DNA of 64,000 nt from Crocinitomicaceae bacterium (GCA_037189645.1 JBBCIY010000002.1:460922-524921), one strand, 5' to 3'. Counted from the first letter of the stretch, positions 33,837 to 59,927 are shown. Made by a program: numbers and translations. The notes: a model not told the origin generated them from the sequence alone.

Positions 33837-33906
33837 CTTTTACCGGAAATCCGTGTAGTTAGCTGGGTATGTGCTGAAAGGAACCTTTATGTTCTTTAAC
33901 GGCTTT

Positions 33907-34821: not shown

Positions 34822-34886
34822 TATTGCGTCACTTTCATTTTAGAACATGTGAACAACGGAAATGTGCAGATATTAACGGGGGCCCT

Positions 34887-35132
34887 TTACGGTCCGTTTT
34901 CTGCAAATAATTCGGAAACATTGATTCCAAGCGCCTTTGTTATCTTCAGCATCGTGCTTACTTTCATCTCTTGTCTCCCCTTGATGTATTTCCTTAAATT
35001 CTCCACATCCATATCTGCATCGTGAGCAACTTCCCTGGTCTTCAGACCTTTCTCCTTTATCAGGAATTCAATTCGCTTTCCAAGCCTGATAATTTCCTCC
35101 GGCATCTCCGTTTTCCGTGCACGTTTTTCCAT
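34887..35132 (-). CDS. XRE-family HTH transcriptional regulator
   Basis: 81 aa with a Cro/C1-type HTH (LGKRIEFLIKEKGLKTREVAHDADMDVENLRKYIKGRQEMKVSTMLKITKALGINVSELF). Confidence 0.7.
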   Translation of the reverse strand: MEKRARKTEMPEEIIRLGKRIEFLIKEKGLKTREVAHDADMDVENLRKYIKGRQEMKVSTMLKITKALGINVSELFAENGP

Positions 35133-42900: not shown

Positions 42901-45900
42901 AACGGACAAGAGGTTACTGACAATACAGATGTAAATGATCCGTGTGATTACGATGTGGCAAGTCAGGTGATTGCAAACGTTACAGCAACTTGGAACAATG
43001 CAGACTGTGACGGTGATGGTGTAACGAACGGTCAGGAAGTTACAGATAATACAGATGTAAACGATCCGTGTGATTACGATGTGGCGCACCAGAACATTGC
43101 AAATGTAGGAGCACAATGGAATGCGGCAGACTGTGATGGTGATGGTGTAACAAACAGTCAGGAAGTGACGGATAATACAGATCCGAACGACCCGTGTGAT
43201 TACGATGTGGCAAGCCAGGTTATTGCCAATGTTACAGCGGCATGGAACGCATTAGACTGTGACGGCGACGGCGTAACGAATGGTCAGGAAGTTACTGACA
43301 ATACAGACATAAATGATCCGTGTGATTACAATGTAGCAAGTGTTACGCTTCCACAAGGCGGAGCATGGAATGCGGCAGACTGTGACGGCGACGGAGTAAC
43401 GAACGGTGATGAGGTAAATCCTACAGATCCGGGAGACACTCCTACAAATCCATTCGACCCTTGTGATTTGAATTCGGCAGACATTACTCTTGCACAAGGA
43501 GGAGCATGGTTAAACGGCGACTGTGACGGCGATGGTGTAACAAATGGCCAGGAGGTTACAGATAATACAGATGTAAACGACCCGTGTGATTACAATGCAG
43601 CAAGCCAGGTTATTGCCAATGTTACAGCAGCATGGAACGCATTAGACTGTGACGGCGATGGTGTAACAAACGGACAAGAGGTTACAGACGGAACGAATCC
43701 AAATGATCCTTGTAGCTATGATCTTGCAAGCTTTAATCTTGCAAATGTTGGTGCAGGATGGAACGCAGCAGACTGCGACGGCGACGGCGTAACGAATGGT
43801 CAGGAAGTTACAGACAATACAGACTTCAACGATCCGTGTGATCTTGTGGTTGCAAATCAAACACCAGGACTGGCAAGTACAGCTTGGAATAACGGCGACT
43901 GTGACGGTGACGGAGTAACGAATGAGGATGAGGTGAATGACAATACAGATCCATTAGATCCATGTGACCTTGTTGTAGCAAGTCAAACACCAGGACTGGC
44001 AAGTGCAGCTTGGAACAACGGCGACTGTGACGGCGACGGAGTAACGAATGAGGACGAGGTTACTGATAATACAGACATCAACGATCCGTGTGATTTTGTT
44101 ACCGGACACCAGACATTGACTCCTGATCCGGTGGCGTGGGATAACGCAGACTGTGATGGTGACGGAGTAACAAACGGACAAGAAATCGCAGACGGAACAG
44201 ATCCAAACGATCCTTGTAATTACAATGTAGCAAGTCAGGTTCTTGCAAATGTTGGTGCAGGATGGAACAACGCAGACTGTGACGGCGATGGTGTAACAAA
44301 CGGTCAGGAAGTTACTGACAATACAGATCCATTAGATCCATGTGACCTTGTAGTTGCAAATCAAACACCAGGACTGGCAAGCACAGCATGGAATAACGGC
44401 GACTGTGATGGTGACGGAGTAACGAATGAGGACGAGTTGTCTGACAATACAGATCCATTAGATCCATGTGACCTTGTTGTAGCAAGTCAAACACCAGGGC
44501 TGGCAAGTGCAGCATGGAACGCGGCAGACTGTGACGGTGACGGAATAACGAACGGTGATGAGGTTACTGATAATACAGATGTAAATGATCCGTGTGATTA
44601 CAATCCTGCAAACTTTGACATTGTAAATGTTGGTGCAGCATGGAACGCGGCAGACTGCGACGGTGACGGAGTAACAAACGGACAAGAGGTTACTGACAAT
44701 ACAGACTTCAACGATCCGTGTGATCTTGTGGTTGCAAATCAAACACCAGGACTGGCAAGTACAGCTTGGAATAACGGCGACTGCGATGGTGATGGTGTAA
44801 CAAATGAAGACGAGTTGTCTGATAATACAGACATTCACGATCCATGTGACCTTGTTGTAGCAAGTCAAACACCAGGGCTGGCAAGTGCAGCATGGAACGC
44901 GGCAGACTGTGACGGTGACGGAGTAACGAACGAAGACGAGGTTACTGATAATACAGATGTAAATGATCCGTGTGATTACAATCCTGCAAACTTTGACATT
45001 GTAAATGTTGGTGCAGCATGGAACGCAGCAGACTGTGACGGTGACGGAGTAACCAACGGTGACGAAGTTGCGGACGGTACAGACTTCAACGATCCATGTA
45101 GCCTTGTTGTAACACATCAGACAGTAGCGCCAAGCACAGCTTGGAACAACGGTGACTGCGATGGTGACGGAGTAACAAACGAAGACGAGCTGGATGATGA
45201 CACAGACATTCACGATCCGTGTGACCTTGTTGTAGCACATCAAACAGTAGCACCAAGTGCAGCATGGAACACGGCAGACTGTGATGGCGATGGAGTAACC
45301 AACGGTGACGAGCTGAATGACAATACAGATGTAAATGATCCGTGTGACCTTGTTGTAACACATCAAACAGTAGCACCAAGTGCAGCATGGAACGCGGCCG
45401 ACTGTGATGGCGATGGAGTAACCAACGGTGACGAGCTGAATGATGACACAGACATCAACGATCCATGTGATTACTTGTTTACAAGCGTAACAGCAACGCC
45501 AAGTGCAGCATGGAACGCAGCAGATTGTGACGGCGATGGAGTAACCAACGGTGACGAAGTAGCTGACGGAACAGATCCGAACGATCCATGTGATTTTGTA
45601 ACGTTAAGCCAGACAGTAACACCAGGCGCAGCATGGAACGACCTTGACTGTGACGGTGATGGAGTAACCAATGGTGATGAATTAACGAACGGCAATGATC
45701 CGAACGATCCATGTGACTTCACACTGGCAAGCCAGACTGTAACGCCAAGCACAGCATGGAATAACGGAGACTGTGATGGTGACGGTGTAACCAATGGTAA
45801 CGAAGTTACAGACGGTACGAATCCGAACGATCCGTGTGATTACCTGTCAGGAAGCGTAACAGTAACACCAACTACGGTTTGGAACGATGCAGACTGCGAC

Positions 45901-46506
45901 GGTGACGGTGTTACAAATGGCCAGGAGGTTACAGACGGTACAAATCCGAATGATCCATGTGATTACCTGATTGCGAACGTAACGCTTACACAGGGAGGTG
46001 CCTGGAGCGCAGCGGATTGTGACGGTGACGGTGTAACGAATGGAAATGAAGCTACAGACGGTACGAATCCGTTTGACGGATGTGACTTCTTAGTGACAAG
46101 CCAGACTGTTACGCCAAGTGATGAGTGGAACAACGGAGACTGTGACGGCGATGGAATCACGAACGGTGAAGAAACTGGAGGAGGTTCAAACCCACTTGAT
46201 CCATGCGATCCGAAAACATGCGGTATTGATATACCGAATGCGTTTACACCGGATGGTGACGGCATCAACGACGTATGGGTAATTGAAGGAATCGAAAATT
46301 ATCCGGACAACCAGCTGACAGTTTACAACCGATGGGGTAATGTGGTTTACACTGCGGACGGATACCTGAACACATGGGACGGTACGTCAAACAGTAACCT
46401 GAATATTGGCGGCGGAGAGCTTCCTACAGGAACATATTACTATGTCATCGAGACAAATGACGAGACTGTCGGTGTATTGAAAGGATATGTATATATCCAG
46501 CGTTAA
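39916..46506 (+). CDS. Giant cell-surface adhesin: RCC1-like beta-propeller + ~34 tandem TSP3-like Ca-binding repeats + T9SS type-B C-terminal domain
   Basis: 2196 aa. Signal peptide. RCC1-type repeats (GGNASGQLGQNNTTHSTGW; GSNSNGMVGGPVG). About 34 repeats of a 42-aa unit WNxxDCDGDGVTNGQEVTDNTDxNDPCDYxVASQxIANVTAA (DxDxDG Ca-binding, 2 Cys per unit). C-terminal gliding-motility/type-B CTD (CGIDIPNAFTPDGDGINDVWVIEGI...GTYYYVIETNDETVGVLKGYVYIQR). Confidence 0.9.
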   Translation: MKKKLLFNKAKYLSALIGAGFMALFASEVHAQQTGCNPLQPYDQIQSGFHTTIATRPDGTFLIWGEGARADGPGTNAAANNHLSPVQIAPNPGVPAEDYAYTGTPLFATLATQVNNAFQGFVLSTDGLWSWGANNVAVGTDLDNIAGFAQINMPVGVAPADVKNMSATWGALVLLTHSGDIWVSARHTSFNGIGGTAPGAADNYWSRVTRSIAGNPPLTGVTEFRITPAGVFAVTTTGQWYTWGPATYLGDGSAVAERNRATPMTKPFTGNPVMIAMTRDCSTTSISTITTATRSSYYAIDPVDGKLYALGGNASGQLGQNNTTHSTGWVPVQNPTNTGDLDNVMFVAGNDHDAWTTQSGAVACILTTGELYSWGSNSNGMVGGPVGTTRYMLPRVPGGFNPGDVATYVEVGGHTTATMKQCAERYCYVGHKIGGSMGDGVATDQSITSFDCANTPEGFICGSSTYDAGDVPLSYENGNPATHYYICGDEIYLGATPPDPDNGMNNNVASGANNMGTNGDNANGVDEDGLDELTLVHSAVNPNFSTTLTYVNNSTDPANIYAWVDWNDDGVFSEDESFIATGLAPDVDPQNINLVWNGVNTSCGYKYMRVRISTNALADDPATVNIDERSCQPLIHGEVEDYFVDVDIASNPNGDCDGDGVSNGVEIANGTNPNDPCNLIVANQDVAPSAAWLADDCDGDGVTNGQEVTDNTDPFDPCDLNSVHITLPQGGAWLNGDCDGDGVTNGQEVIDGTDPTDPCNLIVASQSIPPSAAWNNGDCDGDGVTNGTEVTNGTDLLNPCEYNPANQVIANVTAAWNNLDCDGDGVTNGQEITDGTQPLNPCNYLVASQVIANVTAAWNALDCDEDGVTNGQEVTDNTDVNDPCDYNVASQNIANVGTLWNNADCDGDGVTNGQEVTDNTDVNDPCDYNAASQVIANVTAAWNALDCDGDGVTNGQEVTDGTNPNDPCDYNAANQVIANVTAAWNALDCDGDGVTNGQEVTDNTDVNDPCDYDVASQVIANVTATWNNADCDGDGVTNGQEVTDNTDVNDPCDYDVAHQNIANVGAQWNAADCDGDGVTNSQEVTDNTDPNDPCDYDVASQVIANVTAAWNALDCDGDGVTNGQEVTDNTDINDPCDYNVASVTLPQGGAWNAADCDGDGVTNGDEVNPTDPGDTPTNPFDPCDLNSADITLAQGGAWLNGDCDGDGVTNGQEVTDNTDVNDPCDYNAASQVIANVTAAWNALDCDGDGVTNGQEVTDGTNPNDPCSYDLASFNLANVGAGWNAADCDGDGVTNGQEVTDNTDFNDPCDLVVANQTPGLASTAWNNGDCDGDGVTNEDEVNDNTDPLDPCDLVVASQTPGLASAAWNNGDCDGDGVTNEDEVTDNTDINDPCDFVTGHQTLTPDPVAWDNADCDGDGVTNGQEIADGTDPNDPCNYNVASQVLANVGAGWNNADCDGDGVTNGQEVTDNTDPLDPCDLVVANQTPGLASTAWNNGDCDGDGVTNEDELSDNTDPLDPCDLVVASQTPGLASAAWNAADCDGDGITNGDEVTDNTDVNDPCDYNPANFDIVNVGAAWNAADCDGDGVTNGQEVTDNTDFNDPCDLVVANQTPGLASTAWNNGDCDGDGVTNEDELSDNTDIHDPCDLVVASQTPGLASAAWNAADCDGDGVTNEDEVTDNTDVNDPCDYNPANFDIVNVGAAWNAADCDGDGVTNGDEVADGTDFNDPCSLVVTHQTVAPSTAWNNGDCDGDGVTNEDELDDDTDIHDPCDLVVAHQTVAPSAAWNTADCDGDGVTNGDELNDNTDVNDPCDLVVTHQTVAPSAAWNAADCDGDGVTNGDELNDDTDINDPCDYLFTSVTATPSAAWNAADCDGDGVTNGDEVADGTDPNDPCDFVTLSQTVTPGAAWNDLDCDGDGVTNGDELTNGNDPNDPCDFTLASQTVTPSTAWNNGDCDGDGVTNGNEVTDGTNPNDPCDYLSGSVTVTPTTVWNDADCDGDGVTNGQEVTDGTNPNDPCDYLIANVTLTQGGAWSAADCDGDGVTNGNEATDGTNPFDGCDFLVTSQTVTPSDEWNNGDCDGDGITNGEETGGGSNPLDPCDPKTCGIDIPNAFTPDGDGINDVWVIEGIENYPDNQLTVYNRWGNVVYTADGYLNTWDGTSNSNLNIGGGELPTGTYYYVIETNDETVGVLKGYVYIQR
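41860..46215 (+). repeat. In-frame tandem DNA repeat array, period 126 bp (about 34 copies, many near-identical)
   Basis: Recurrent blocks such as gcagcatggaacgc(a/g)ttagactgtgacggcgacgg(c/a)gtaac(g/a)aacggtcaggaagttac(a/t)ga(c/t)aatacagatgtaaa(c/t)gatccgtgtgattac recur at 126-bp spacing (e.g. 42487, 42613, 42739). Coding: the period is a multiple of 3 and there are no non-repeat spacers. Copy-number variation and assembly collapse are possible. Confidence 0.85.
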
Positions 46507-46541
46507 GAGTGAAATTTTTCAAAAATTGAAAAAAAATAAAA

Positions 46542-47465
46542 ATGAAAACAATTAAGTTTTTAGCAGGTTGTTTTACACTGGTGCTTCTTGGAAGCACCAG
46601 TGCAACCGCGCAGCAAGACCCTCATTATACACAGTATTTTGACAACATGCTGTTTATCAACCCGGCTTATGCAGGAAGCCGCGGGATGTTGAACATGACC
46701 GGGATACACCGTGAGCAGTGGGTAGGATTTGACGGACGTCCGCGTTCATCCACATTCAGCATTCATTCACCTTTATCCTACGAATCAGTAGGGCTGGGGC
46801 TGACAGCAGTGAACGACAACATCGGGCCGATGAACCAGACAATGTTTTACGCGGATGCGTCCTATACCGTAAAATTTAAGAACCATAAAGGGAAGCTGGC
46901 ATTTGGTGTAAAAGGAGGGATCAACCTGATCAACATCGGGAGAGACGGACTGAACACAGATAATCCGAATGATCCTAAATTGTTGCAGAACATCCGTAAC
47001 AATATCAATCCGAACTTCGGATTCGGGATCTATTACCATACTCCAGGATTCTTTATCGGAGTAAGTACACCGAAGATTCTGGAACAAAGCTATGACGAGC
47101 TGAGTACAACCAACCTGGAACGCCGTCACTACTTTGGAACAATCGGAGGGGTTATTCCCGTATCGGACAAATGGAAGCTGAGACCAACTTCATTGATAAA
47201 AATAACAGAAGGAGCTCCATTGAGCCTGGACCTGACAATGGCTGCGATCTATAACGAAAAACTGTGGTTGGGAGCAAATTACCGTTTGCTGGCAGCTTTT
47301 GGAGCGTTTGTACAGGTACAGATTTCTCCTCAGTTCAAGATCGGGGTAGCAAGTGATTTCGGTACACAGAAATTGAGAAACTATAACCACGGATCTTTTG
47401 AGATCATGTTGTCTTACGACTTCACGTTCAAAAAAGAAGGTATTCGTTCACCTCGTTATTTCTAA
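46542..47465 (+). CDS. porP: T9SS membrane protein PorP/SprF family
   Basis: 307 aa. Signal peptide then the family-defining start QQDPHYTQYFDNMLFINPAYAG. Beta-barrel profile. Immediately downstream of the type-B CTD adhesin, as for SprB/SprF. Confidence 0.85.
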   Translation: MKTIKFLAGCFTLVLLGSTSATAQQDPHYTQYFDNMLFINPAYAGSRGMLNMTGIHREQWVGFDGRPRSSTFSIHSPLSYESVGLGLTAVNDNIGPMNQTMFYADASYTVKFKNHKGKLAFGVKGGINLINIGRDGLNTDNPNDPKLLQNIRNNINPNFGFGIYYHTPGFFIGVSTPKILEQSYDELSTTNLERRHYFGTIGGVIPVSDKWKLRPTSLIKITEGAPLSLDLTMAAIYNEKLWLGANYRLLAAFGAFVQVQISPQFKIGVASDFGTQKLRNYNHGSFEIMLSYDFTFKKEGIRSPRYF

Positions 47466-47483
47466 CCAAACAGACAAAAGAAA

Positions 47484-49742
47484 ATGAAAGCAATATTATT
47501 AGTAGTAGCATGTAGTTTATCGTTGTCCTTGTTTGGGCAAGCCGGAAAATTGAAGAAGGCGGATAATTATTTCAACCGCCTGTCCTATGCGTATGCGGCA
47601 GAATTGTATGAAGAGCTGATCGGTTCGGAAGTCGACAGCCCTGAATTGAAAAGCAAGCTGGCGTACAGTTACCTGAAAATGGATAACTATACGAAATCTG
47701 TTGAGTATTACGGAAAGATGATCGAATCTTCGGAAGCAAAGCCGGAAGATTATTACCATTATTCCTATGTGCTGAAGCAGACCGGGAATTATTCTGAAAG
47801 TGACAAGTGGATGAACAAATTCAGCCAGTCTGTTACAGCAGATACCAGGAGCCAGTTGTTTTTGTCCAATACGGCATACAAGTCGAAGATAGAAAAGAAC
47901 CAGCCGTTCTTTTCACTGGAGAACCTTTCCCTGAACACTTCTTCCGCTGATTTCGGAGGATATTACAACCCGGCACAGGATCGCATGTATTTCATTACGG
48001 CGCGAAGAAAACGGGCATTTGTTAAAAATGAATGGTCATGGGATGCGAGAAGATTCCTCGATTTGTACCAGGTTTCCGTCAGCCAGGAAAATAAACTGGG
48101 CGATCCGAAACGGGTTTCCAAGGTAAATACCAAATTCCACGAGGGACCGGTTGCGTTTGCACCGGACGGGAAAAAGGTTTATTTCACTAGAAACAATATT
48201 TCGTCCGGAAGCAAGCGACGTGACGGGCAGAAAATTCAGAACCTGAAATTATATATTGCCGACGTTGATGAAAAGGGAAATTGGATAAATGAACAGGAAT
48301 TCCCGTACAATTCGAAGGATTATTCAGTAGGGCATCCGACCATTACCCAGGACGGAAAAACAATATACCTGGTATCCGACAAGCCGGGAGGAATCGGTGG
48401 AGCGGATATTTACAAAGTAGCAATCCAGGAAGACGGGACATTCGGAGAAATGATTAACCTCGGAAACAAGATCAACACGGAAGGACAGGAAATGTTCCCG
48501 TTCATTGATTCCGAAGGAAGACTGTTCTTCTCAACGGATGGCCACCCGGGACTGGGAGGACTGGATGTGTTCGTTGCTTTCTTTGAAAACGGAAACGCCG
48601 GGAAGATCCACAACGTTGGGTTGCCGATCAACAGCCAGTACGATGATTTTGCATTCAACATGTCAAAAGACTTCAAAACAGGCTTTCTTTCTTCCAACCG
48701 TGAAGGCGGAAAGGGAGGAGATGACATCTATTCGGTGCAGTTGATTCGTCCGTTTGTATTTGGCGTAACCATCAAAGGAACGGCAAAAGACAAGAAAGGT
48801 GAAATCGTTCCGTTCGCAAAAATCGACCTGAAAGATGACAAAGGAAACATCATCGAAACGGTTACGGCTGACGAAAACGGAGCCTATACATTTGAAGCGG
48901 AATACGAGAAGAATTACGGTCTGGGAGGTTCAAAAGCAGACTACTTCGACGGGAAGAATACAGCAAGCACATTCACGGATGAGCAAGTTGTGATCGCAGA
49001 TGTTGTATTGGAAAAAGACCCTGGTTTGTCTTTGTACGCATTGATCACCGACAAGAAAACAGGACAGCCTCTGGAAGGAGTACAGGTTTACCTGGTTGAC
49101 AACATGACAGACAAGTCGAAGAAAATCGTAACACCTGTAACGGGAGATTTCAGAGAAGCACTGTTTGGCAAGAAACTGAACGACAGAGGAAGCTATAACC
49201 TCATTCTTCAGAAAGAAGGGTATTTTTCCAAGACAGTGACTTACAATACACTGTTTGAAAGACCTGGACAGTACGACATTCACGCGATTCTTGATCTGGG
49301 ACTGGATCCGGAGGTAAAGGATTTGTCTGAAATGGTACAGATCAACCCGATCAACTTCGACCTGAACAAGTATAACATTCGCCCTGACGCTGCGAAAGAG
49401 CTGGATAAGATCGTAGAAGTGATGAACAAATACCCGCACATGGTAGTGGAATTAGGTTCACACACCGACTGTCGCGCCTCAAAGGCATATAACATGAAAT
49501 TGTCTGATAACCGTGCAAAATCATCGGCTGAGTATATCAAGAAAAGGATTACCAACCCGGAGCGCATCTACGGTAAAGGATACGGGGAATCCCGTTTGCT
49601 GAACGGATGCGAATGTGAAGGGAACGTGAAATCCGATTGCCCGGAAGAAGAGCATGAAAAGAACAGACGTACAGAATTTAAAGTAATCTCTACAGGTGAT
49701 GATAAGCTAAAAGTGAACAACACCAGTACAGACAGTTTTTAG
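47484..49742 (+). CDS. OmpA-family protein with TPR, PD40/WD40-like beta-propeller and C-terminal OmpA peptidoglycan-binding domain
   Basis: 752 aa. Signal peptide. TPR-like N-terminus. Tol-Pal-type PD40 repeats (GGADIY, GGLDVF, GGDDIY). CarboxypepD_reg-like Ig domains. OmpA_C (NFDLNKYNIRPDAAKELDKIVEVMNKYPHMVVELGSHTDCRASKAYNMKLSDNRAKSSAEYI). Third member of the usual CTD-B / PorP / OmpA triad. Confidence 0.85.
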   Translation: MKAILLVVACSLSLSLFGQAGKLKKADNYFNRLSYAYAAELYEELIGSEVDSPELKSKLAYSYLKMDNYTKSVEYYGKMIESSEAKPEDYYHYSYVLKQTGNYSESDKWMNKFSQSVTADTRSQLFLSNTAYKSKIEKNQPFFSLENLSLNTSSADFGGYYNPAQDRMYFITARRKRAFVKNEWSWDARRFLDLYQVSVSQENKLGDPKRVSKVNTKFHEGPVAFAPDGKKVYFTRNNISSGSKRRDGQKIQNLKLYIADVDEKGNWINEQEFPYNSKDYSVGHPTITQDGKTIYLVSDKPGGIGGADIYKVAIQEDGTFGEMINLGNKINTEGQEMFPFIDSEGRLFFSTDGHPGLGGLDVFVAFFENGNAGKIHNVGLPINSQYDDFAFNMSKDFKTGFLSSNREGGKGGDDIYSVQLIRPFVFGVTIKGTAKDKKGEIVPFAKIDLKDDKGNIIETVTADENGAYTFEAEYEKNYGLGGSKADYFDGKNTASTFTDEQVVIADVVLEKDPGLSLYALITDKKTGQPLEGVQVYLVDNMTDKSKKIVTPVTGDFREALFGKKLNDRGSYNLILQKEGYFSKTVTYNTLFERPGQYDIHAILDLGLDPEVKDLSEMVQINPINFDLNKYNIRPDAAKELDKIVEVMNKYPHMVVELGSHTDCRASKAYNMKLSDNRAKSSAEYIKKRITNPERIYGKGYGESRLLNGCECEGNVKSDCPEEEHEKNRRTEFKVISTGDDKLKVNNTSTDSF

Positions 49743-49777: not shown

Positions 49778-49812
49778 AAAGGCTGCCTTTATAGGCAGCC
49801 TTTCTTTCATTT
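49778..49812 (+). terminator. Rho-independent terminator after the OmpA-family gene
   Basis: Perfect 10-bp inverted repeat AAAGGCTGCC (49778-49787) / GGCAGCCTTT (49794-49803), loop TTTATA, followed by CTTTCATTT. Confidence 0.6.
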
Positions 49813-49879: not shown

Positions 49880-50119
49880 TCATTTTTTAGGTTGGGCGAT
49901 GTTTCCTTTATTGTTATCATATTCCCTGGTTTCGTTTTTGAAGAAAAAAGATAAAATGATCAGTAAGAAAAAAGAAACACCCAAGATGATCACGAGTGTA
50001 ATTAACGTCTTTTTTATGTTTTCCGAACTCATTATATCTATTCCCCAGATGCCCAGAATAAAATAGGTGGCAATAAAAAGAATAACAGAGGTAACAATAA
50101 TTCCAATAATATATTTCAT
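49880..50119 (-). CDS. Small two-TM membrane protein (last gene of the minus-strand module)
   Basis: 79 aa, two hydrophobic helices separated by a short loop. 20 bp downstream of the SPFH gene on the same strand. Confidence 0.35.
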   Translation of the reverse strand: MKYIIGIIVTSVILFIATYFILGIWGIDIMSSENIKKTLITLVIILGVSFFLLIILSFFFKNETREYDNNKGNIAQPKK

Positions 50120-50139
50120 TTTGACGAGTATTTATCTGG

Positions 50140-51141
50140 TTAAAGATTGTTTAACAGTTCTTTCTTCTTTTCCTCATAATCAGCAAGTGTAATAATGTTT
50201 TCGTCCAGAAGAATTTTTAGTTTTCTTAATTTTTCAGCCACACCATCAGAGTTTTTTGAGATCAGTTCATCGGTCTGATCACTGAATTTCTTGCCTAATT
50301 CCATTCCAACACCGAGTTGAATTCCGGCGCCGGCCACACCTCCTTCATTTTTTGCTGCATCGCGTAAGGCTCTCAGTTTTTCCAGTTCACTATAACTCAA
50401 ACCTGCCTCCTGCGCAGCCTGAACATCGGTAGTAATGTCGGCTATTCTGGCGATGCGTTTTTGGGTTTCGCTGTCAAATTGACTTCCATTTATTCGGAAA
50501 TCGGTTAATTCCAACCCCAGCGATGAGAAATCCTTTTTAAGGATTGAGAACAGCTTTTGGGAAATAGTATTTAACTGCGAATCTATTTCCTGAAAAGAAT
50601 ATTTTTCACTAGCAATTAAAGAAGTGATCTGCTGTGGAAAACGTTCGGAAAGAACAGTTCTCAAATCATCTGCTGTATAGTGGTTTTTGCTTCCTATTAC
50701 ATTGATAAATAAATCGTTGATGGAGATTATTTGATAGGAGAAATTGCCGTTTAACCCCAGTTCAACAGGGATGTTATAAATAGCATCAATGTATTTCAAA
50801 GGGCTTGGAGTACCCCATCCTTGATTAAGTATTTGAGCCTTCCTAAAGAAATAAATATGTAATTTATGTTCACTTTCAAAACTTTTTCTCAGATTAACTA
50901 GTGTTGTGATGAACGGATGATTATCAGTTTTGAGATTGTAAATTCCATCCTTATCAAGGATCTCTGATATTTTCCCTTCATAGACCAATACACATCCCTG
51001 ACCGGGAGCAATGATCAGCTTACTCGAATTTTTTATTTCGTCTTCTTCTGACGGAAATTTATACCAGAGTAGTTCCGGATTTTGATCTTTCCATTGAATA
51101 ACAGATGAAAGTTGTCTGCGAAATAGATTAAATAGTTTCAT
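50140..51141 (-). CDS. SPFH/Band-7 (PF13421-like, YdjI-type) protein with C-terminal SHOCT domain
   Basis: 333 aa. N-terminus MKLFNLFRRQLSSVIQWKDQNPELLWYKFP matches the Band_7_1/YdjI-type SPFH start pattern. C-terminal LADYEEKKKELLNNL is a SHOCT-like oligomerisation tail. Confidence 0.65.
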   Translation of the reverse strand: MKLFNLFRRQLSSVIQWKDQNPELLWYKFPSEEDEIKNSSKLIIAPGQGCVLVYEGKISEILDKDGIYNLKTDNHPFITTLVNLRKSFESEHKLHIYFFRKAQILNQGWGTPSPLKYIDAIYNIPVELGLNGNFSYQIISINDLFINVIGSKNHYTADDLRTVLSERFPQQITSLIASEKYSFQEIDSQLNTISQKLFSILKKDFSSLGLELTDFRINGSQFDSETQKRIARIADITTDVQAAQEAGLSYSELEKLRALRDAAKNEGGVAGAGIQLGVGMELGKKFSDQTDELISKNSDGVAEKLRKLKILLDENIITLADYEEKKKELLNNL

Positions 51142-51198
51142 AAGGTTGAATGTTTATGCGGTTTAATTTTAAACTTAAAAATGGCAGATTGGTTTTCT

Positions 51199-52557
51199 TT
51201 ATTCATACATTAAGTTATATATAGGATTGTGAAATGTATCCATCAGGTTAATTGTTTGTCCATCTGTTTCATTAACGAGCCAAACCTTTCCGTTTTGTGC
51301 TGTTAGCAGATACCCGCCTTCTACGATGGTAGCTGACGCATTACTGAACCCCTTTTCCAAAGGAACGGTCCATTTGATTTCTCCGTTTTGTGCATTTATC
51401 AGTTGAAGGTTGTAGCCGGATTCTGATGAAAGTGTAGGCTTAAAAGATATAAGTACACTTTTTTCATTATAGGCGAGTAGATTTGGAGAAAAATAGAATC
51501 GTCCGGGAGTAAAATTCGAATAAGAAATAAGCCTTGCGTTTTTAGAAGTAAAAAAATCACTGAATGAAGGATTGTCTGAGCTTTCGTTTCGGACAGTAAA
51601 TATGGCTTTTTTTGTAGGATATCCAACCTGTTGGAATTGGTTATATTTAATTAAGAAAACCCTTTCTTTGGCGTGAGGGGCTACTAATCCTGTAAATGTA
51701 TAAGCAGTTCTTTTTTGTGCTTTAGGTAATTTTTCGTTCCCTGTACTTCCGGGATATACCTTTCCAATAATCGGATAGTAATAAGGTTGCTTTCCTGTTT
51801 CGGTCAGCAGATAAAAACCATCTCCGTCGTATTCAGGAACAAAACGGATTTCTATAAATCCTGATTCCATACCCGGAAGATGATTATAGGTTTCCGGAGA
51901 AACTTCCGAGATATCATACGACTGCTGGTTGAATTTGTATAGTTTGTTCCCATTGAAAATACAGTATATATCTCCATTTTCAAATTGACGGATATCTATA
52001 TAATTGGAACTGGCGGATGAGAAGTTAATCCCTTCTATTGGCTTAGAGAAGACCTGTTTACCGTTTGAAACATCATAAATACTTATTATGGATTCCATGG
52101 ATTCTTTATAAGGGGAGACCTTTATTTTCCTTTCTTTATTTCCAAAAACACATGCGAAGGGTCTGTTGTCTGAGTTTACAAATCCAAAGACTTTTATGAC
52201 ATTTGTATCGATCTCTTCCTTTTCAGTGTCAATCGTACGACTAGGTGCCGTTTTGTTTGAAAATGATTTATCTGAAGTCGGTAAAACTGTTATATAGCTG
52301 GAAAATATCCCTATTATAACAGACCCGATTATACCTATGTATATCCATTTCTTCTGTGTATTTGCAGAAGCGGCCTGAGAAGTATTTTCAGTTGTGTGCT
52401 CATCTCCGTTGTGATGATAGTGATTGATGTTTACATCTCCGCTGTCCAGAATAAAGTGAGCTCCACAATTATTGCAGCTGTAACGGTCTCTCCTGAGTTT
52501 TGTATTCTTGACGCTCCCGCACTGAGGACATTTAATTACCTTAAATTTATCTGCCAT
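51199..52557 (-). CDS. Zinc-ribbon / TM / beta-propeller-like membrane protein (paralog 2)
   Basis: 452 aa. N-terminal CPxCG...CxxCG zinc ribbon (KCPQCGSVKNT...YSCNNCGAHF), His-rich segment, one TM (WIYIGIIGSVIIGIFSSYITVL). About 350-aa extracytoplasmic beta-rich domain with PQQ/BamB-like C-terminal repeats. Confidence 0.6.
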   Translation of the reverse strand: MADKFKVIKCPQCGSVKNTKLRRDRYSCNNCGAHFILDSGDVNINHYHHNGDEHTTENTSQAASANTQKKWIYIGIIGSVIIGIFSSYITVLPTSDKSFSNKTAPSRTIDTEKEEIDTNVIKVFGFVNSDNRPFACVFGNKERKIKVSPYKESMESIISIYDVSNGKQVFSKPIEGINFSSASSNYIDIRQFENGDIYCIFNGNKLYKFNQQSYDISEVSPETYNHLPGMESGFIEIRFVPEYDGDGFYLLTETGKQPYYYPIIGKVYPGSTGNEKLPKAQKRTAYTFTGLVAPHAKERVFLIKYNQFQQVGYPTKKAIFTVRNESSDNPSFSDFFTSKNARLISYSNFTPGRFYFSPNLLAYNEKSVLISFKPTLSSESGYNLQLINAQNGEIKWTVPLEKGFSNASATIVEGGYLLTAQNGKVWLVNETDGQTINLMDTFHNPIYNLMYE

Positions 52558-52722
52558 AGTTGTTGTATAGGTCTATTGTAAACAAATATATAAGAAACTG
52601 TTTTATTTCAATCTTTTGGAAGCAATAAAAATCATTCAGTCGCAATTTATGCAAACTTCTTTCACATTTTGCCGGTTGATGTCGTAGTAATGTGATTTCC
52701 GGCGTATCATTGTGATGGGGGA

Positions 52723-54057
52723 TTACAGTTGATTAAAGTCTGTTGAATGAACCGTTTCACCAGTACTTTTATTGATCAGCCAGGAATGTTTGTGTCCGAT
52801 AATTAAATAACCGTTTTCAGCTACTACAGCTTTTACAGTATTTACATTTTCTTCCCAAGGAATGGTCCATTTGATTTCGGCATTTTCAGCATTTATTAAT
52901 TGGAGTTGGGGAAGAGCATCAGGGGCCATTGAGGGTTTAAAGTATATCAGTACATTGTTTTTATCAAAGGTTAATACACTTGCGGAGAAGTAAAGTCGTC
53001 CAGGTGTGAAGTCAGAGAAAGAGATTACTCTTGCACGTTCTTTGGACCATGGGCGCAGAAGTACTTTTTTATAAGGAGAACGGTCCGTGAATATTCCTGA
53101 GCCGCCATAATCTTTTACCCATTCAAATCTGGGAGTATCTCTTGGAAATCCTGATAGGAAGAAGTAATTATATTTTATCAGCTGGATTTTTTCTTCAGAA
53201 AAATCCAATGACCTGGCAGAAAATCTGTAAGCGGTTCTTGTTTCCACCTGAGATGTTGTTTCTGTTATTGCTGAATCAAACTGATCTTTGTTATAGATTT
53301 TTCGGATCAGGGGATAGTAGTAGCGTTCTTTTCCACTGTTTGTCATTAATTTAAAGCCATCTCCATAATTGTCATATACGAATTCAATGAATGCAAATCC
53401 TGATTCCATATCAGGTAAATCCTTGTATGTTTCGGGAGACACTTCGGAGAAGGAGAACGATTGGGGATTGATGCTGAATAATTTTGTTTTATTGATAATG
53501 AAATACATATCTCCGTTTTCAAATTGACGGATACTGACATCGGATAATTTCGGGGCAGCTTCAATGGGTTTCATTGAAAGTTGTTTCCCGTCAACCGGGT
53601 CATAAATACCGATATGCGGAATTTTATTTCCGACTGAAGAGGAGTCGGAAATCTGATTTCCGATAACACATATAAATGATTTTTTATCCTTATTCACAAA
53701 TCCGCAGATTTTTTGAATATCCCATTTGATGACTTCTTTTTTGACCTCTTCTCTTTTGTAGGTTGAATAGGTCGTCTTGCTGGAAGGAGGGGAAGTGAAT
53801 AACGAGCTGATAATCGAATATACGATCGATACAACTATAAAGCTGAGAGTTGTATACCCGATAATTTTAAGAGTCAGAAGTTGATTTAACGGGGAACTCT
53901 GGCGGTCATTATGGTAATAATGATTGATGTTAATGTCATCATTGTCAATAAAAAAATCAGTTCCACAACTTCTGCATTGATAAAGATCAGCTTTGATTTC
54001 CGTGTTTTTGACACTTCCGCATTGTGGACATTTGATTGCTTTTATCTGTTTAGCCAT
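52723..54057 (-). CDS. Zinc-ribbon / TM / beta-propeller-like membrane protein (paralog 1)
   Basis: 444 aa with the same architecture as 51199-52557 (KCPQCGSVKNTEIKADLYQCRSCGTDF; TM LSFIVVSIVYSIISSLF). About 40-55% identical by eye across the full length, including conserved blocks IRQFENGD, SEVSPETY, DGFxL and YYYP. Confidence 0.6.
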   Translation of the reverse strand: MAKQIKAIKCPQCGSVKNTEIKADLYQCRSCGTDFFIDNDDININHYYHNDRQSSPLNQLLTLKIIGYTTLSFIVVSIVYSIISSLFTSPPSSKTTYSTYKREEVKKEVIKWDIQKICGFVNKDKKSFICVIGNQISDSSSVGNKIPHIGIYDPVDGKQLSMKPIEAAPKLSDVSIRQFENGDMYFIINKTKLFSINPQSFSFSEVSPETYKDLPDMESGFAFIEFVYDNYGDGFKLMTNSGKERYYYPLIRKIYNKDQFDSAITETTSQVETRTAYRFSARSLDFSEEKIQLIKYNYFFLSGFPRDTPRFEWVKDYGGSGIFTDRSPYKKVLLRPWSKERARVISFSDFTPGRLYFSASVLTFDKNNVLIYFKPSMAPDALPQLQLINAENAEIKWTIPWEENVNTVKAVVAENGYLIIGHKHSWLINKSTGETVHSTDFNQL

Positions 54058-54211
54058 AAAAATATAAGTCGTTATTTGTTACCAAATTTAGTAAGAAATC
54101 CACTATGGCTTATTTTGTTTTAAACGGGAATACGTTTTTTAGACGTTCTGACAAGTTATTTTTACGCTGGATTTCAGGTTAAATTCTATACTTGTATTAA
54201 TTTTACATCTG

Positions 54212-55443: not shown

Positions 55444-56019
55444 ATGAATAAATTAGTGATCATATTGACTTGCCTGATCTGGTTTTCCTGCGGAAAGAAA
55501 GCCGGGGAAGAGCTTCCCGTAACGGATATTCACCACATCCAGGACTTGGGGACGCTGGCAACGACCGAATATACATTTGGAAAGATCGTTCACCTGAACG
55601 ATGATAAGGACTGGTACCGGTTCGGGGACAGGAAGATACTGATCAGGGTGAAGGCAAAAGCGAAAGCGGGTATTGACCTGACCAAAATGAATGACAAGGA
55701 CGTGGAAGTGACCGATGAAGGAAAAACAGTTAAATTGCTGCTTCCCGCTCCTGAAATCATCTCGTTTGAGATGAATCCAAATGACATCCGCACTGAAATG
55801 ACAGATGTGAACGGGTTCCGGTTTGAATTTTCCCAGGAAGAGAAAATGAAAGTGCTGCAATTGGGAGAAAAGAGCATTCGGGAAGAAATGAAAGAGAGTA
55901 ATATTTTAACGGACGCAAAAAGGAACGCACGTGTTTTTCTCAAAGATTTTTACCAGGACATGGGTTATGAACATGTAATTATTGACTTTAAACCTTCAGA
56001 AGAAAGTGGCAGGAAATAA
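55444..56019 (+). CDS. DUF4230-like lipoprotein
   Basis: Lipoprotein signal (LTCLIWFSCGKK). The KAKAGIDLTKM block is typical of DUF4230. Start chosen at the internal Met (55444) of the 55378 ORF. Confidence 0.5.
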   Translation: MNKLVIILTCLIWFSCGKKAGEELPVTDIHHIQDLGTLATTEYTFGKIVHLNDDKDWYRFGDRKILIRVKAKAKAGIDLTKMNDKDVEVTDEGKTVKLLLPAPEIISFEMNPNDIRTEMTDVNGFRFEFSQEEKMKVLQLGEKSIREEMKESNILTDAKRNARVFLKDFYQDMGYEHVIIDFKPSEESGRK

Positions 56020-56659
56020 AAGAGCAGAAATTATCCGGCTGATTATCAATGGTACGGTCATCGCTGCAATAATTGTTGGAGTCGTATTTCTTGTGCGAAA
56101 ATGCAACGCGGGGGAAAATTCGGAATGGGAACTGGAAAATCATCCGCTGAAAATTGAGAACATCCGTAAAATCGCTGAATTGAGCACGGTCAGCTACCTG
56201 GATGAAGTGGTGGTCGATACCATTGAATACTACGACGGGCTGGGCGAGCAGATTACGGGTAACGTAAAAAAGCTGTCGGACATTGAGAACTGGAAATATT
56301 CCATTCGCGGATCAGCAATTAAACGCCGCCTGACGCTGATCGTTGGCGGAGAGGTCCGTTACGGTTTCGACTTAAAAGACACCACTTTCCATACACGTTT
56401 CTCGGGAGATTCTGTTTTTGTTACGGTTGCCCAACCGAAAATCCTGGATATTCTTGTTCCTCCATCGAAAACAACCGTGTTCCAGGAGCACGGTAAATGG
56501 CACGACAGTGCACGGAGAAAGCTGCAGCAGAAAGCTGTCAACACACTGTCGCATCGTTCTAAGCAGCTGGGACTGGAGGAAAAATCAAAGAAACAGCTGG
56601 AATCCCTGCTTCAAAAGCTGATAACCGAAAAACGAACTTTAATTATGACGTACCAATGA
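55982..56659 (+). CDS. DUF4230-like membrane-anchored protein (tandem paralog)
   Basis: 225 aa. N-terminal TM (IINGTVIAAIIVGVVFLV). The RYGFDLKD block parallels the upstream gene. Overlaps the previous gene by 38 bp. Confidence 0.5.
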   Translation: MTLNLQKKVAGNKRAEIIRLIINGTVIAAIIVGVVFLVRKCNAGENSEWELENHPLKIENIRKIAELSTVSYLDEVVVDTIEYYDGLGEQITGNVKKLSDIENWKYSIRGSAIKRRLTLIVGGEVRYGFDLKDTTFHTRFSGDSVFVTVAQPKILDILVPPSKTTVFQEHGKWHDSARRKLQQKAVNTLSHRSKQLGLEEKSKKQLESLLQKLITEKRTLIMTYQ

Positions 56660-57066
56660 AAAGACTGGCTATCCTGTTGATGTTGACGTTTGCAGCCGGT
56701 TGCTCGAAAGAGATACAGAACAACCGTGCACTGGACGGAGACTGGAAATCGGTAGATTTGTCAGTGTTTGACTACAGCGGATTAAAGACCAAACCGGAAT
56801 GTACAGGCAATATGCAGTTTAAAAGCGATGGTAAGAGATCCAGCACAGGAACGTATCGTTTCAGTCTTTACTTCGAGTACAACCAGTCGCCATTGAATTT
56901 TATTGAGCAGGGAACTTATTATATTGAGAATAAAAATAACATCAAGCTGCTTTCATCTGACGGAGAGGAAAAGATCGTAACTTTGGTCTACCATACGAAA
57001 GAAGACCTGGTGCTGGATTTTCCGAATGTTCACTACCTGGCATATTATATTGTATTAAAAAAATGA
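56656..57066 (+). CDS. Hypothetical lipoprotein (lipocalin-like size)
   Basis: 136 aa. Lipobox LTFAAGCSK. No family recognised. Confidence 0.45.
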   Translation: MKRLAILLMLTFAAGCSKEIQNNRALDGDWKSVDLSVFDYSGLKTKPECTGNMQFKSDGKRSSTGTYRFSLYFEYNQSPLNFIEQGTYYIENKNNIKLLSSDGEEKIVTLVYHTKEDLVLDFPNVHYLAYYIVLKK

Positions 57067-58777: not shown

Positions 58778-58873
58778 GAGAGGTATGGAAGAATAAATCA
58801 GTGTTTGCTGAACAGGCAAGAATTTATTTTTTCTATATTTATTCTTCATTGTAATCGACGTAACTGCTACTTT

Positions 58874-59927
58874 ATGAAAACGATCACTGGTTCGCCCCTG
58901 GTTTTTTGGTTATGTTGCTACATCAGCGGTATTCTTGTTTCATTGACAGGAGAATGGCTGTTACTTTCCGTGATTTCCATAGCTGTCTTTTTAGCTGGTG
59001 TACTTCTTCCGTATCTGTCCGCTACTCTGAGAGCGTACATTGTTTTCGCTCCCTTGTTCTTCATTACAGGCTCGTTGTCGATGGAACGCGTGTTCCCGAA
59101 GCAGAATGACGCATTGACCAACGGAGAAAACTATTACGTCGGAACGATCGAACAGCAGCTCACCTCAGGAAAAATATGGAGCACCAACCTTATTCGGCTT
59201 CAATCAGGGATGCGGAAGAATGGAAAATGGGAACAGACCAATGAACGGGTGTTGCTGCTGACAGAAAACGGCGAAATCTTATTGAACCAGAATGATGTGA
59301 TCCTTTTTAAGACCGGGTTCAAAGAAATTACGACAGCGAACAATCCTGGCGAGTTCAATGCAAAAATGTACTGGTATTCCAAAGGAATAAGATACCAGGG
59401 ATTCGGGGCATCAGAGCAGATCAAGCTCATAGAACCCGTCCCTTTGGGATGGTTTGACCAGTTGCTGGAATCGGTGAGAAACTATTCAACAGCAGTGCTG
59501 GACAGGTGGGTAGGTCAGAAAGATGCTCCGCTGATAAAAGCGATTCTGCTGGGCGATAAGAGTGACCTGGATACGGAAACAAAGCGTGTCTTTACAAATA
59601 CAGGCGCGATGCACATGCTGGCTGTTTCCGGAATGCACATCGGGCTGATTGTCGTGCTCCTCGGAGGGATCTTCAAAGTGCTGTTCTTTTACAGGGGAAG
59701 GACCATTGCCTTGTGGCTGATGATAGTCCTCTTGTGGTTTTATGCCTTTTTAACCGGTTTTTCAGCTTCTGTTACCCGTGCGGTTGTGATGTTTACCATA
59801 CTTAATCTGGGCCGGGTTTATGCGAAGAGGGTACCAGCCGGTCAATGCGTTGTCTGCTGCTGCATTTTTCATCCTGGTATGGGACCCCAAAGAGGAGAGA
59901 TTTCAAACCTTTTGTAGGGAAATTTAG
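58874..59927 (+). pseudogene. comEC: comEC/rec2 (DNA internalisation competence channel), 5' portion only: frameshifted near 59830 and truncated at the island junction
   Basis: N-terminal TMs and the Competence domain hallmark (TGAMHMLAVSGMHIGLIVVLLGG...FSASVTRAVVMFTIL). After ...RVYAKR the conserved continuation (Y)QPVNALSAAAFFILVWDPKE is readable only in the +1 frame from about 59832. Both frames stop by 59927. The expected ~300-aa C-terminal half with the MBL domain is absent. Confidence 0.7.

Follow-up and report, generated by a model that had tools for sequence, protein, structure and literature searches.

A compact operon of zinc-ribbon propeller proteins, an SPFH protein and a two-TM mini-protein, widespread in Bacteroidota and with a predicted role at the cell envelope

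What could be the task of a small group of genes in which two large zinc-ribbon membrane proteins, an SPFH protein and a very small membrane protein are encoded side by side? The question arose from a sequence-only reading of a 64,000-nucleotide stretch of a Crocinitomicaceae bacterium (GCA_037189645.1 JBBCIY010000002.1:460922-524921; hereafter the window, with positions counted from its first letter), which hesitated between a membrane-stress or surface-sensing system and a phage-defence module. An ORF check of the window found the four co-oriented minus-strand genes exactly where that reading had placed them (Table 1), in the order A1, A2, B and C and with intergenic gaps of 165, 57 and 20 bp. 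The low GC content originally pointed out for the module was also confirmed, with a value of 0.363 versus a window mean of 0.439 (the 8th lowest among 300 equal-sized windows), and with a GC3 of 0.33-0.37 in the module genes versus 0.49-0.55 in the adjoining ones. These four genes make up one self-contained compact operon, of a type that is widespread in Bacteroidota. Elsewhere in the window, a type II restriction-modification (R-M) system lies 6 kb from the module.

Table 1. Positions in the window of the module genes and of the regulatory elements around them
Feature	Position	Strand	Basis or remark
A1, promoter-proximal paralog, 444 aa	52723..54057	-	ORF; 40% identity to A2; A-family profile
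A2, B-adjacent paralog, 452 aa, same architecture as A1	51199..52557	-	
B, soluble SPFH protein, 333 aa	50140..51141	-	PF13421 profile, hydropathy, model
C, 79-aa two-TM hairpin protein	49880..50119	-	ORF; two hydrophobic segments
Divergent intergenic region 5' of A1	54058..54211	-	sequence and motif scan
-7 box TAAATTTG, Bacteroidota-type	54083-54090	-	33 nt upstream of A1 ATG; motif scan
A1-A2 intergenic region	52558..52722	-	sequence and motif scan
Second -7 box TATATTTG	52583-52590	-	33 nt upstream of A2 ATG; motif scan
GC-rich hairpin separating C (-) from the convergent OmpA-like gene (+)	49778..49812	.	RNA fold

A motif scan of the upstream regions detected the TAnnTTTG box in 8 out of 25 cases, versus 2.1 expected from shuffles. 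Both A1 and A2 carry this -7 box at the same distance from their start codons, so that A2, B and C may have their own transcription, with the A1-A2 gap acting as a possible internal promoter. At the other end of the module, the strong terminator described as its boundary is a real hairpin, with a folding energy of -28.1 kcal/mol (z=-6.8) on the plus strand and -22.7 kcal/mol (z=-6.3) on the minus strand, and it is absent from the output of a consensus terminator scan. Its U-tract occurs on the plus strand only, indicating that this element chiefly ends transcription of the OmpA-like gene that converges on the module.

The two A proteins are clear paralogs, as previously suggested, with 40% identity across their full length (E=5e-106). 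A1 matches the A-family profile (E=1.4e-172) and finds its nearest relatives in other genera, Limimorpha and a Bacteroidales MAG, at 43-44% identity, A2 being the more divergent copy of the pair. The zinc ribbon of A1 is built by four cysteines (C10, C13, C28 and C31) with a CxxC-x14-CxxC spacing, in which 13 residues separate the CPQCG and CNNCG motifs. This spacing is identical in 100 of the 104 family members and replaces the 17-residue one initially proposed. The His-rich spacer that had been listed as a feature is not a family trait either, as homologs alternate Asn, His and Tyr in this segment. A single TM segment follows (approximately residues 60-91 in A1 and 71-94 in A2 by hydropathy), and then a beta-propeller of about 330 residues. 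The absence of a signal peptide in the A proteins, together with the N-terminal position of the ribbon and the presence of just one TM segment, points to a topology with the ribbon in the cytoplasm and the propeller in the periplasm. The fold of this ectodomain matches propellers in general, in agreement with the earlier description, but its PQQ/BamB character was not sustained, since the profile match covers only about 60 residues and stays sub-threshold (E=0.002). In this regard, the A proteins have no above-cut-off PQQ profile, lipoprotein signal or PQQ-dehydrogenase active site, and they did not match any characterised enzyme family.

The B protein shows a Band_7_1 domain (residues 27-232), behind which come a helical part, a Gly-rich stretch of high conservation (around 266-285) and a SHOCT-like two-helix tail (303-330). 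Its assignment to PF13421 is above the gathering cut-off (E=4.2e-34), with PF01145 as a secondary match beneath it (E=2.6e-7). The SHOCT domain of the window copy scores 19.3 bits (E=9e-4), under the Pfam cut-off of 27, although PF09851 is precomputed for many homologs 55-65% identical to B, the range of identity found across Bacteroidota, and the two C-terminal helices are visible in the structural model. No TM or hydrophobic segment was detected in B (maximum KD19 of 0.80). An AlphaFold2 model of the protein (pLDDT 77.6) gave Foldseek matches to stomatin, prohibitin, HflK/C, erlin, flotillin and QmcA, with E-values from 6e-8 to 1e-5. As for C, both termini are placed on the cytoplasmic side of its predicted hairpin, and a consensus of 77 sequences reveals a conserved basic cytoplasmic tail (FF..GYD..kG.vAqpk).

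Are these genes a true functional unit? A genome search with B alone, covering 185,579 species genomes, recovered 268 pattern-matched loci, from which 80 loci spanning 23 genus-level groups were retained for neighbourhood analysis. An A-family ORF adjoins B in every one of them (80/80), and a C homolog comes immediately after B in 71 of the 80, covering 22 of the 23 groups. All-against-all clustering gave the same picture, with A and B present in 23/23 groups and C in 22/23, while no other real neighbour family occurred in more than 3 of the 23. The same gene order is found in nine independent metagenomic or genomic contexts. C is missing from one subgroup of Pedobacter, and thus it is not indispensable. 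Moreover, the gammaproteobacterium Moraxella canis harbours the whole A-B-C trio with a GC of 0.37 compared to 0.45 in its flanks, and with a C closely similar to that of Capnocytophaga, indicating that the trio was transferred as a unit. The constant pairing of A and B, the recurrence of the three families in almost all groups and in the nine contexts, and the Moraxella trio altogether characterise the module as a unit of selection. A chance juxtaposition, in which A1 and A2 would be periplasmic BamB/PQQ-like proteins devoted to outer-membrane biogenesis or dehydrogenase activity and unrelated to B and C, is hardly credible in the light of the 80/80 association, which effectively refutes it, and of A proteins carrying a TM anchor instead of a lipoprotein signal, with all PQQ-enzyme families below cut-off. 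The architecture, deemed undescribed in the sequence-only reading, is indeed missing from Pfam, from NCBIfam and from the literature that could be searched. Its occurrence in no fewer than 268 species genomes and 623 clusters (50% identity) shows, however, that it is common and not peculiar to this genome. Of the two outcomes that the sequence-only reading had named as its refutation, a lack of conserved co-occurrence and a match of the propellers to a characterised enzyme family, neither came about.

Duplication of the zinc-ribbon propeller protein, already seen in the window, turned out to be a recurrent trait of the A family, with 1 to 4 copies, whereas B and C are single. These duplicates vary in age, their pairwise identity ranging from 98.6%, a very recent event at one locus, down to less than 30%. 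An orphan A copy of Myroides sits beside genes for a Dam methylase and a HATPase_c protein. On the whole, the occurrence of the module is patchy (the 268 loci mentioned above), and a foreign composition is clear in this window, Tannerella, Limimorpha and Moraxella, a combination that an accessory conflict system could show as well. In most genera, on the other hand, module and flanks do not differ in GC and synteny is kept within the genus.

These traits bring us to the suggested role in phage defence. In such an anti-phage or superinfection-exclusion (abortive) module, the propellers would detect phage attachment or injection, C would be a holin-like effector restrained by B, and additional A copies would widen the range of recognition. 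The patchy distribution and the horizontal transfer even across phyla could be understood in this way, and so could the foreign GC of the window module and the repeated, at times very recent, duplication of the sensor-like A alone. C resembles a class II holin in size and layout and gives a weak match to SieB (E=0.003, below cut-off), and the surroundings of the Myroides orphan and of the window module (a type II R-M system) point in the same direction. However, when the four proteins were compared with the 5027 models of PADLOC-DB 2.0, only chance-level matches of the zinc ribbon to Cas12 were obtained (E of 0.004 or weaker). No enrichment in defence islands was observed among 95 neighbours from 17 genera, where 12 PADLOC families were matched by just 1-2 proteins each and where housekeeping genes predominate, with TonB receptors, AraC regulators and metabolic enzymes as the commonest neighbours by Pfam. 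Most genera, as said, keep the module at the GC of its flanks and in conserved synteny, the propeller is under purifying and not diversifying selection (dN/dS of 0.05-0.18 within genera), and no link of such SPFH modules to defence was found in the literature searched. The proposal thus gained no positive support, and we regard it as improbable.

Conservation is very unequal along the module. Between genera, identity reaches 66% in the zinc-ribbon segment and 58% in B, but drops to 32% in the propeller and 20% in the linker and TM region. All parts are under purifying selection, with within-genus dN/dS values of 0.02 for the ribbon and 0.02-0.12 for B, to be added to those of the propeller given above. 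The ribbon and B show, consequently, a coupled conservation. This pattern bears on a different explanation, transmembrane signalling to gene expression, where A would behave like an anti-sigma factor or a one-component regulator whose ribbon binds DNA or a transcription factor, with B and C as accessories. An N-in zinc domain followed by a TM segment and a periplasmic sensor resembles many anti-sigma factors, and the ribbon is labelled 'TFIIB-type' in the source-database annotation. Nevertheless, ribbon conservation tracks that of B, no more than some 45 residues of A are structured on the cytoplasmic side, the ribbon has the form of a CxxC-x14-CxxC knuckle pair and not of the HxxxCxxC ZAS motif, and no sigma factor or other regulator gene is conserved beside the module in the 23 genus-level groups, all of which makes this explanation quite remote.

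Most likely, the operon monitors or organises the cell envelope. We propose that B, an SPFH protein located in the cytoplasm and of the YdjI/SamI type (PF13421), would oligomerise as other SPFH proteins do, into a ring- or cage-like assembly lying against the cytoplasmic side of the inner membrane. This anchorless protein would be held there by the zinc ribbon that A exposes to the cytoplasm, by the conserved cytoplasmic tail of C, or by both. The periplasmic propeller of each A might bind an envelope component or ligand, and the complex would then couple a periplasmic cue to how the inner membrane is locally organised or stabilised, so that the module would serve in envelope homeostasis or stress. 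Where A is present in several copies, as with A1 and A2 here, these would offer alternative periplasmic heads on one B/C scaffold. The model draws on the behaviour of the genes as a unit of selection, on the topology predicted for A, B and C, on the coupled constraint of ribbon and B, and on the B. subtilis precedent discussed below. The stoichiometric logic of a module where only A is multiplied also favours it, as does the fold match of B to the QmcA-YbbJ and HflK/C-FtsH cages, which keep their membrane partners inside or under the cage. The latter similarity could also be read as an SPFH cage that regulates a protease or enzyme encoded elsewhere, following the logic of HflK/C-FtsH or stomatin-NfeD, with A and C as substrates or adaptors instead of anchors and sensors. 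B indeed matches HflK/C, prohibitin and QmcA-YbbJ assemblies that enclose proteases or NfeD partners, and operons with membrane partners are typical for SPFH genes, but neither A nor C contains a protease or NfeD domain, none is conserved nearby, and the N-terminal TM or hairpin that HflK/C, stomatin and QmcA possess is missing from B. We consider this second role of the cage unlikely, and keep the envelope scaffold as the working model.

The comparison with known SPFH systems helps to delimit this model. In HflK/C-FtsH and prohibitin cages, as in B, a helical region comes after the SPFH fold, a likeness that suggests for B, too, a ring or cage sitting on one face of a membrane. Those cages, however, use TM helices of their own as anchors; moreover, the HflK/C cage is periplasmic and encloses a protease, whereas B is predicted to be cytoplasmic and has no linked protease. 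In the SPFH-NfeD operons (E. coli QmcA-YbbJ, B. subtilis FloT-YuaF and FloA-YqeZ, and archaeal stomatin-STOPP), the SPFH scaffold shares its transcript with a small membrane partner, as here, and the predicted fold of B matches both QmcA (8z5g) and stomatin. B is, however, a PF13421 protein without an N-terminal TM or hairpin, C has no OB-fold/NfeD, and the propeller protein A has no counterpart in those operons. In line with this, PF01145 is only a secondary match of B, which has no TM of its own, and no NfeD match was found in A or C at E-values up to 1. More distantly, a B homolog with 27.7% identity, annotated as SPFH or 'ydjI', is encoded with small membrane proteins on a Ralstonia megaplasmid, within the proteobacterial DUF350-SPFH-DUF4178-SpeD operons of polyamine metabolism (PMC11237479), whose partners (DUF350, DUF4178 and AdoMet decarboxylase) are wholly different and do not include a zinc-ribbon propeller protein. 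The PF13421-PF09851 architecture of B itself is the commonest context of SHOCT (PMC3581485), and the novelty of the module resides in the obligate partners A and C.

The closest parallel is found in the SamGHI/YdjGHI system of B. subtilis. There, YdjI/SamI, a soluble SPFH protein, depends on YdjG and YdjH for its membrane localisation, and YdjG has N-terminal zinc ribbons, starting with MIISYKCPNC as deduced from a cloning primer (PMC8581546; PMC11237479; bioRxiv 10.64898/2026.02.06.704340). In both cases an anchorless, soluble PF13421 protein is encoded at the operon end after a membrane protein with an N-terminal Cys4 ribbon, and in B. subtilis this SPFH protein relies on operon-encoded membrane proteins (PMC8581546; bioRxiv 10.64898/2026.02.06.704340). 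Induction by envelope stress (sigma-W) and a membrane-fluidity phenotype are further traits of the B. subtilis type. The putative homology of B and YdjI is drawn from the Pfam family that published work gives for them and from transferred annotation. By two-hybrid data from B. subtilis, YdjI is anchored directly by the TPM-domain protein YdjH and not by the zinc-ribbon YdjG, and the analogy is thus no proof of a ribbon-B contact. No TPM domain occurs in A, B or C or is conserved among the neighbours in the 23 genus-level groups. In Olivibacter only, a lone 62-aa TPM fragment follows C. Similarly, no PspA/IM30 (ESCRT-III) gene, which heads the operon in the B. subtilis type, appears in the Pfam-annotated contexts or among the families common to genera. 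The comparison with YdjG/YdjI drawn at the outset therefore holds for its logic, a soluble PF13421 SPFH protein next to a ribbon membrane protein, but not for its link to PspA. YdjG, here compared by its published description and its first 10 residues, combines two ribbons, an NTF2/YpeB-like domain and a TM, whereas A has one ribbon, one TM and a propeller. In YdjI a low-complexity region leads to a C-terminal zinc finger, whereas B ends in a SHOCT-like two-helix tail without a C-terminal Cys motif. Compared to SamGHI, moreover, the module adds the two-TM mini-protein C, often multiplies A, and resides in diderm Bacteroidota instead of Firmicutes. With these differences in mind, the module is best read as a PspA-less remote analogue of B. 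subtilis SamGHI/YdjGHI, in which A and/or C would tether the B scaffold to the inner membrane, and we give this envelope-scaffold model about an even chance.

The four genes studied here (two paralogous zinc-ribbon/TM/propeller proteins, A1 and A2, the SPFH protein B and the two-TM mini-protein C) represent an uncharacterised and widespread Bacteroidota operon arranged around a YdjI-type SPFH protein, whose zinc-ribbon/propeller membrane partners constitute a new family. The searchable literature gave no account of this module. The sequence-only reading had noticed four minus-strand genes of low GC, and this was confirmed with small corrections: the ORFs, occupying 49880-54057, are separated by 165, 57 and 20 bp (A1-A2, A2-B and B-C, respectively), and their GC of 0.363 against 0.439 for the window ranks 8th lowest among 300 equal-sized windows, with a GC3 of 0.33-0.37 compared with 0.49-0.55 in the adjacent genes. 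Both A1 and A2 are preceded by a Bacteroidota -7 box (TAnnTTTG), exactly 33 nt ahead of the ATG (54083-54090 and 52583-52590, respectively), and two promoters are predicted there. A consensus promoter and terminator scan gave counts equal to the shuffled expectation, the sigma-70 consensus used being unsuited to Bacteroidota. As for the strong terminator previously proposed at 49778-49812, fold computation indicates a genuine hairpin (dG -28.1 kcal/mol, z=-6.8), but its U-tract lies on the plus strand, so that it terminates chiefly the convergent OmpA-like gene.

Module genes in the window, and conservation between and within genera for each module part
Feature	Position	Strand	Description	Between-genus identity	Within-genus dN/dS
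A1	52723-54057	minus	ORF, 444 aa		
A2	51199-52557	minus	ORF, 452 aa		
A zinc ribbon	residues 1-45			66%	0.02
A linker/TM				20%	
A propeller				32%	0.05-0.18
B	50140-51141	minus	ORF, 333 aa	58% (Gly-rich 241-290 segment 74%)	0.02-0.12
C	49880-50119	minus	ORF, 79 aa	39%	

Beside the module there is a convergent cluster of T9SS cargo genes (39916-49742, plus strand), the first of which encodes a product of 2196 aa that combines numerous bacterial TSP3 repeats with an RCC1-like propeller and a CHU_C sorting domain; a PorP/SprF and then an OmpA/PD40/CarboxypepD_reg protein come next. These T9SS genes mark the host as a Bacteroidota. On the other flank we find a divergent M20 peptidase, then a tandem DUF4230 pair (55468-56659, plus strand) and a small lipoprotein-like ORF without family match (56656-57066). 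A type II restriction-modification pair, made of an NgoFVII-like PLD endonuclease (PF09565+PF20731) and a C5 cytosine methylase (PF00145), maps ~6 kb from the module (60005-62073, minus strand), within a second low-GC island (GC 0.30-0.35 across 60-64 kb). The ORF next to this island (58805-59917, 370 aa) shows DUF4131 and no more than a partial ComEC 'Competence' domain, and comEC may therefore be truncated or interrupted by the island. A third lower-GC stretch (0.38-0.40) at 30000-34900 holds three minus-strand ORFs (31927-32571, 32925-33836 and 33907-34821).

A1 and A2 share 40% identity across their entire length (E=5e-106), and a profile scan of both with Pfam and NCBIfam gave no model at cut-off. 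Below threshold, there were only weak zinc-ribbon matches, a PQQ_2/BamB match over 60 residues (E=0.002) and, at the C-terminus, the NCBIfam 'PA2928 family' at E=1e-5 (25 bits for a cut-off of 70). An alignment of 15 A homologs revealed that C10, C13, C28 and C31 are invariant, and the CxxC-x14-CxxC spacing is kept in 100 of 104 family members. The absence of a signal peptide together with the N-terminal position of this Cys4 ribbon indicates an N-in, propeller-out topology. Protein B matches Band_7_1 (PF13421, E=4e-34), and its residues 303-330 resemble SHOCT at a sub-threshold score; this PF13421+SHOCT architecture has already been reported as the commonest context of SHOCT (PMC3581485). No hydrophobic segment was detected in B by hydropathy, and phmmer gave no solved structure related to it by sequence, its structural relatives being reached through the fold only: the B model (pLDDT 77.6) matches the cage-forming SPFH proteins stomatin, prohibitin, HflK/C, erlin, flotillin and QmcA-YbbJ, with E values from 6e-8 to 1e-5. 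In C, two TM segments form a hairpin, and the cytoplasmic tail is conserved (consensus FF..GYD..kG.vAqpk).

A word-seeded homolog search with A2 as query detected 15 relatives, a figure limited by the sensitivity of the method. The idea of A as a very rare family was rejected in view of a profile search over 1.84 billion representatives, which gave 623 matches (235 below 1e-30), and of the 268 loci obtained when the B alignment was scanned against one genome per species. The A family thus has hundreds of members, yet no Pfam or NCBIfam model describes it. For B there were 935 matches below 1e-10, the best 120 of which span Bacteroidota at 53-65% identity, barring one fragment 98% identical; B is much better conserved than A. 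The sequence-only reading had set conserved co-occurrence in other genomes as its check, and this was clearly found: among the 80 loci retained for analysis, an A-family ORF adjoins B in every one, and C directly follows B in 71. Moreover, all-against-all ORF clustering recovered A and B in 23 of 23 genus-level groups and C in 22, the next real family being common to at most three of them. These co-occurrence data rule out a chance juxtaposition of a BamB-like protein with B and C. The same gene order was observed in about ten further metagenome or genome contexts, of which one, a human-associated lineage, counts 524 member sequences. Among the bearers of the A family are oral and gut Bacteroidota of humans and animals, namely Tannerella forsythia, Porphyromonas crevioricanis, Prevotella/Hoylesella and Capnocytophaga. 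The flanks differ between genera and consist mostly of TonB-dependent receptors, AraC regulators and metabolic genes; neither PspA nor a TPM-domain protein, a sigma factor or a protease was linked to the module in them.

Some loci depart from this general layout. A subgroup of Pedobacter (L004, L008, L061, L065, L066 and other loci) keeps A and B and lacks C, with convergent xseB/xseA genes directly downstream of B, a natural variant useful for probing the role of C. Parapedobacter tibetensis (L001, 7275-8000) and two other genera have a gene directly before A, abutting its start, for a DUF1266 protein with an N-terminal TM, and an MscS-type mechanosensitive channel gene follows C. Each was found in 2 of 95 sampled neighbours, and both may be occasional accessory partners.

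Within the module only A is multiplied. The window has two copies, as have several loci of Flavobacterium, Sphingobacterium, Myroides, Pedobacter, Mucilaginibacter and Dysgonomonas, and in some loci an extra copy lies downstream of C. A1 is closer to orthologs elsewhere than A2 (44% vs 35% identity). Four copies occur in a metagenome contig (L005 1182-8124, ERZ14214030 NODE_1333), as tandem paralogs followed by B and C, and in a Flavobacteriaceae MAG (L027), whose copies are 28-38% identical. Two of the L005 paralogs share 98.6% identity, compared with 53-59% between them and the rest, which indicates an ongoing amplification of the propeller component, and the full range of paralog identities, from 98.6% down to <30%, argues for recurrent duplication. 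An orphan A-family gene, with neither B nor C adjoining, was found in Myroides sp. LJL116 (L003 8001-9398). Genes for a Dam-type methyltransferase, two HATPase_c proteins and two giant products of 1485 and 1453 aa flank it, surroundings that look like a defence island.

All parts of the module are functional and under purifying selection, and the conservation of the A ribbon is coupled to that of B: this cytoplasmic ribbon is as tightly constrained as B, with the periplasmic domain freer to change. Diversifying selection on the propeller was considered and rejected gene-wide on the pairwise dN/dS values within four genera.

A complete A-B-C trio was also detected in a gammaproteobacterium, Moraxella canis (CP139961.1, L091 4406-7293), where the nqr operon lies on one side of it and a hisA-like (His_biosynth) gene on the other. 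With a GC of 0.37 where the flanks have 0.45, and a C protein very similar to the one in Capnocytophaga, the locus looks like a cross-phylum transfer between dog oral bacteria. Such a joint move of three genes from one phylum to another speaks strongly for a functional unit that is self-sufficient. That the module should be of low GC by nature was considered and rejected, since the mean difference to the flanks is -0.005 over 79 loci and a low value is limited to the window, Tannerella, Limimorpha and Moraxella. A tblastn search with B gave two weak phage matches and otherwise only remote homologs, carried by megaplasmids of Ralstonia and others in another type of operon, so that the module itself is not a cargo of the plasmids or phages in the collections covered.

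A patchy distribution, horizontal transfer, the foreign GC in the window, a multiplied sensor-like gene and a holin-like C would all fit a phage-exclusion or abortive system, as the sequence-only reading had suggested. This suggestion had no positive support, however: the four proteins match none of the PADLOC models, the 95 neighbours scanned do not form defence islands, and the pattern of selection does not favour it either, so that we regard such a role as unlikely. We hold equally doubtful a more elaborate scheme, in which the trio would be a horizontally mobile, PspA-less envelope surveillance system whose one to four interchangeable propeller receptors per operon dock through the ribbon on one SPFH cage controlling the holin-like C, leading to phage exclusion or abortive infection, or to a new inner-membrane gating by periplasmic cues.

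In the most likely mechanism, proposed from the fold of B and by analogy with the pspA-ydjGHI (samGHI) system of Bacillus subtilis, B would assemble into an oligomeric scaffold at the inner membrane, on its cytoplasmic face, where the A zinc ribbon, the C tail or both would keep it in place. The A propeller would bind a periplasmic component as its ligand, and additional A paralogs could provide alternative periplasmic heads on a single scaffold. The analysis shows the architectures, topology, folds, co-occurrence and coupled conservation, from which the contacts, oligomer, ligand and output are inferred. Alternatively, B could be a cage regulating a protease, which the data support less well and which we find improbable, or the module could signal to transcription, also less well supported and very unlikely in our opinion. 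The data point to no categorically new principle, and we infer the mechanism by analogy. With three parts and a clear predicted topology the module is testable, and natural experiments are already available in the varying copy number of A, in those Pedobacter that have lost C and in the transfer into Moraxella. Altogether, it is a tractable entry to the coupling of SPFH scaffolds with periplasmic sensing in diderm bacteria.

PF13421 proteins are widespread and poorly understood, and to our knowledge the only one studied is YdjI/SamI of Bacillus subtilis, always in a PspA context. The closest studied system to our module is accordingly pspA-ydjGHI (samGHI) of this bacterium, where the soluble YdjI/SamI requires YdjG (two N-terminal zinc ribbons, an NTF2-like domain and a TM helix) and YdjH (a TPM domain) for membrane localisation, recruits PspA, and is thought to form a membrane stress sensor with its partners (PMC8581546; PMC11237479; bioRxiv 10.64898/2026.02.06.704340). 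Both systems have the PF13421 scaffold in common, and the conserved pairing of such a protein with a zinc-ribbon partner bears out that part of the sequence-only interpretation, but the PspA link did not hold: the module has neither PspA nor a TPM protein. Moreover, B ends in SHOCT whereas YdjI/SamI ends in a zinc finger, and A has a propeller and one ribbon in place of the NTF2-like domain and two ribbons of YdjG. Since several defining features are lacking, the module is a functional analogue only and not a member of the YdjGHI/PspA system. A single 62-aa ORF with a TPM_phosphatase match, just after C in Olivibacter ginsenosidimutans (L002 10806-10994), could be a remnant of a link to a YdjH-type system. 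Neither is the module an SPFH-NfeD pair, since B has no TM and the NfeD domain is absent. A distant PF13421 homolog (27.7% identity) on a Ralstonia solanacearum megaplasmid (CP144383.1, L093 3569-7161), labelled in one Ralstonia record as 'ydjI: antifreeze protein, type I', lies in the order DUF350-SPFH-DUF4178-small ORF-SpeD, that is, in the polyamine-type DUF350-SPFH-DUF4178-SpeD operon described by Ravi et al. (PMC11237479), which shows that scaffolds of the PF13421 type occur with several different sets of partners. In our module, the same type of scaffold is strictly partnered with different membrane proteins and without PspA, and recruitment of PspA is therefore not a general role of PF13421 proteins.
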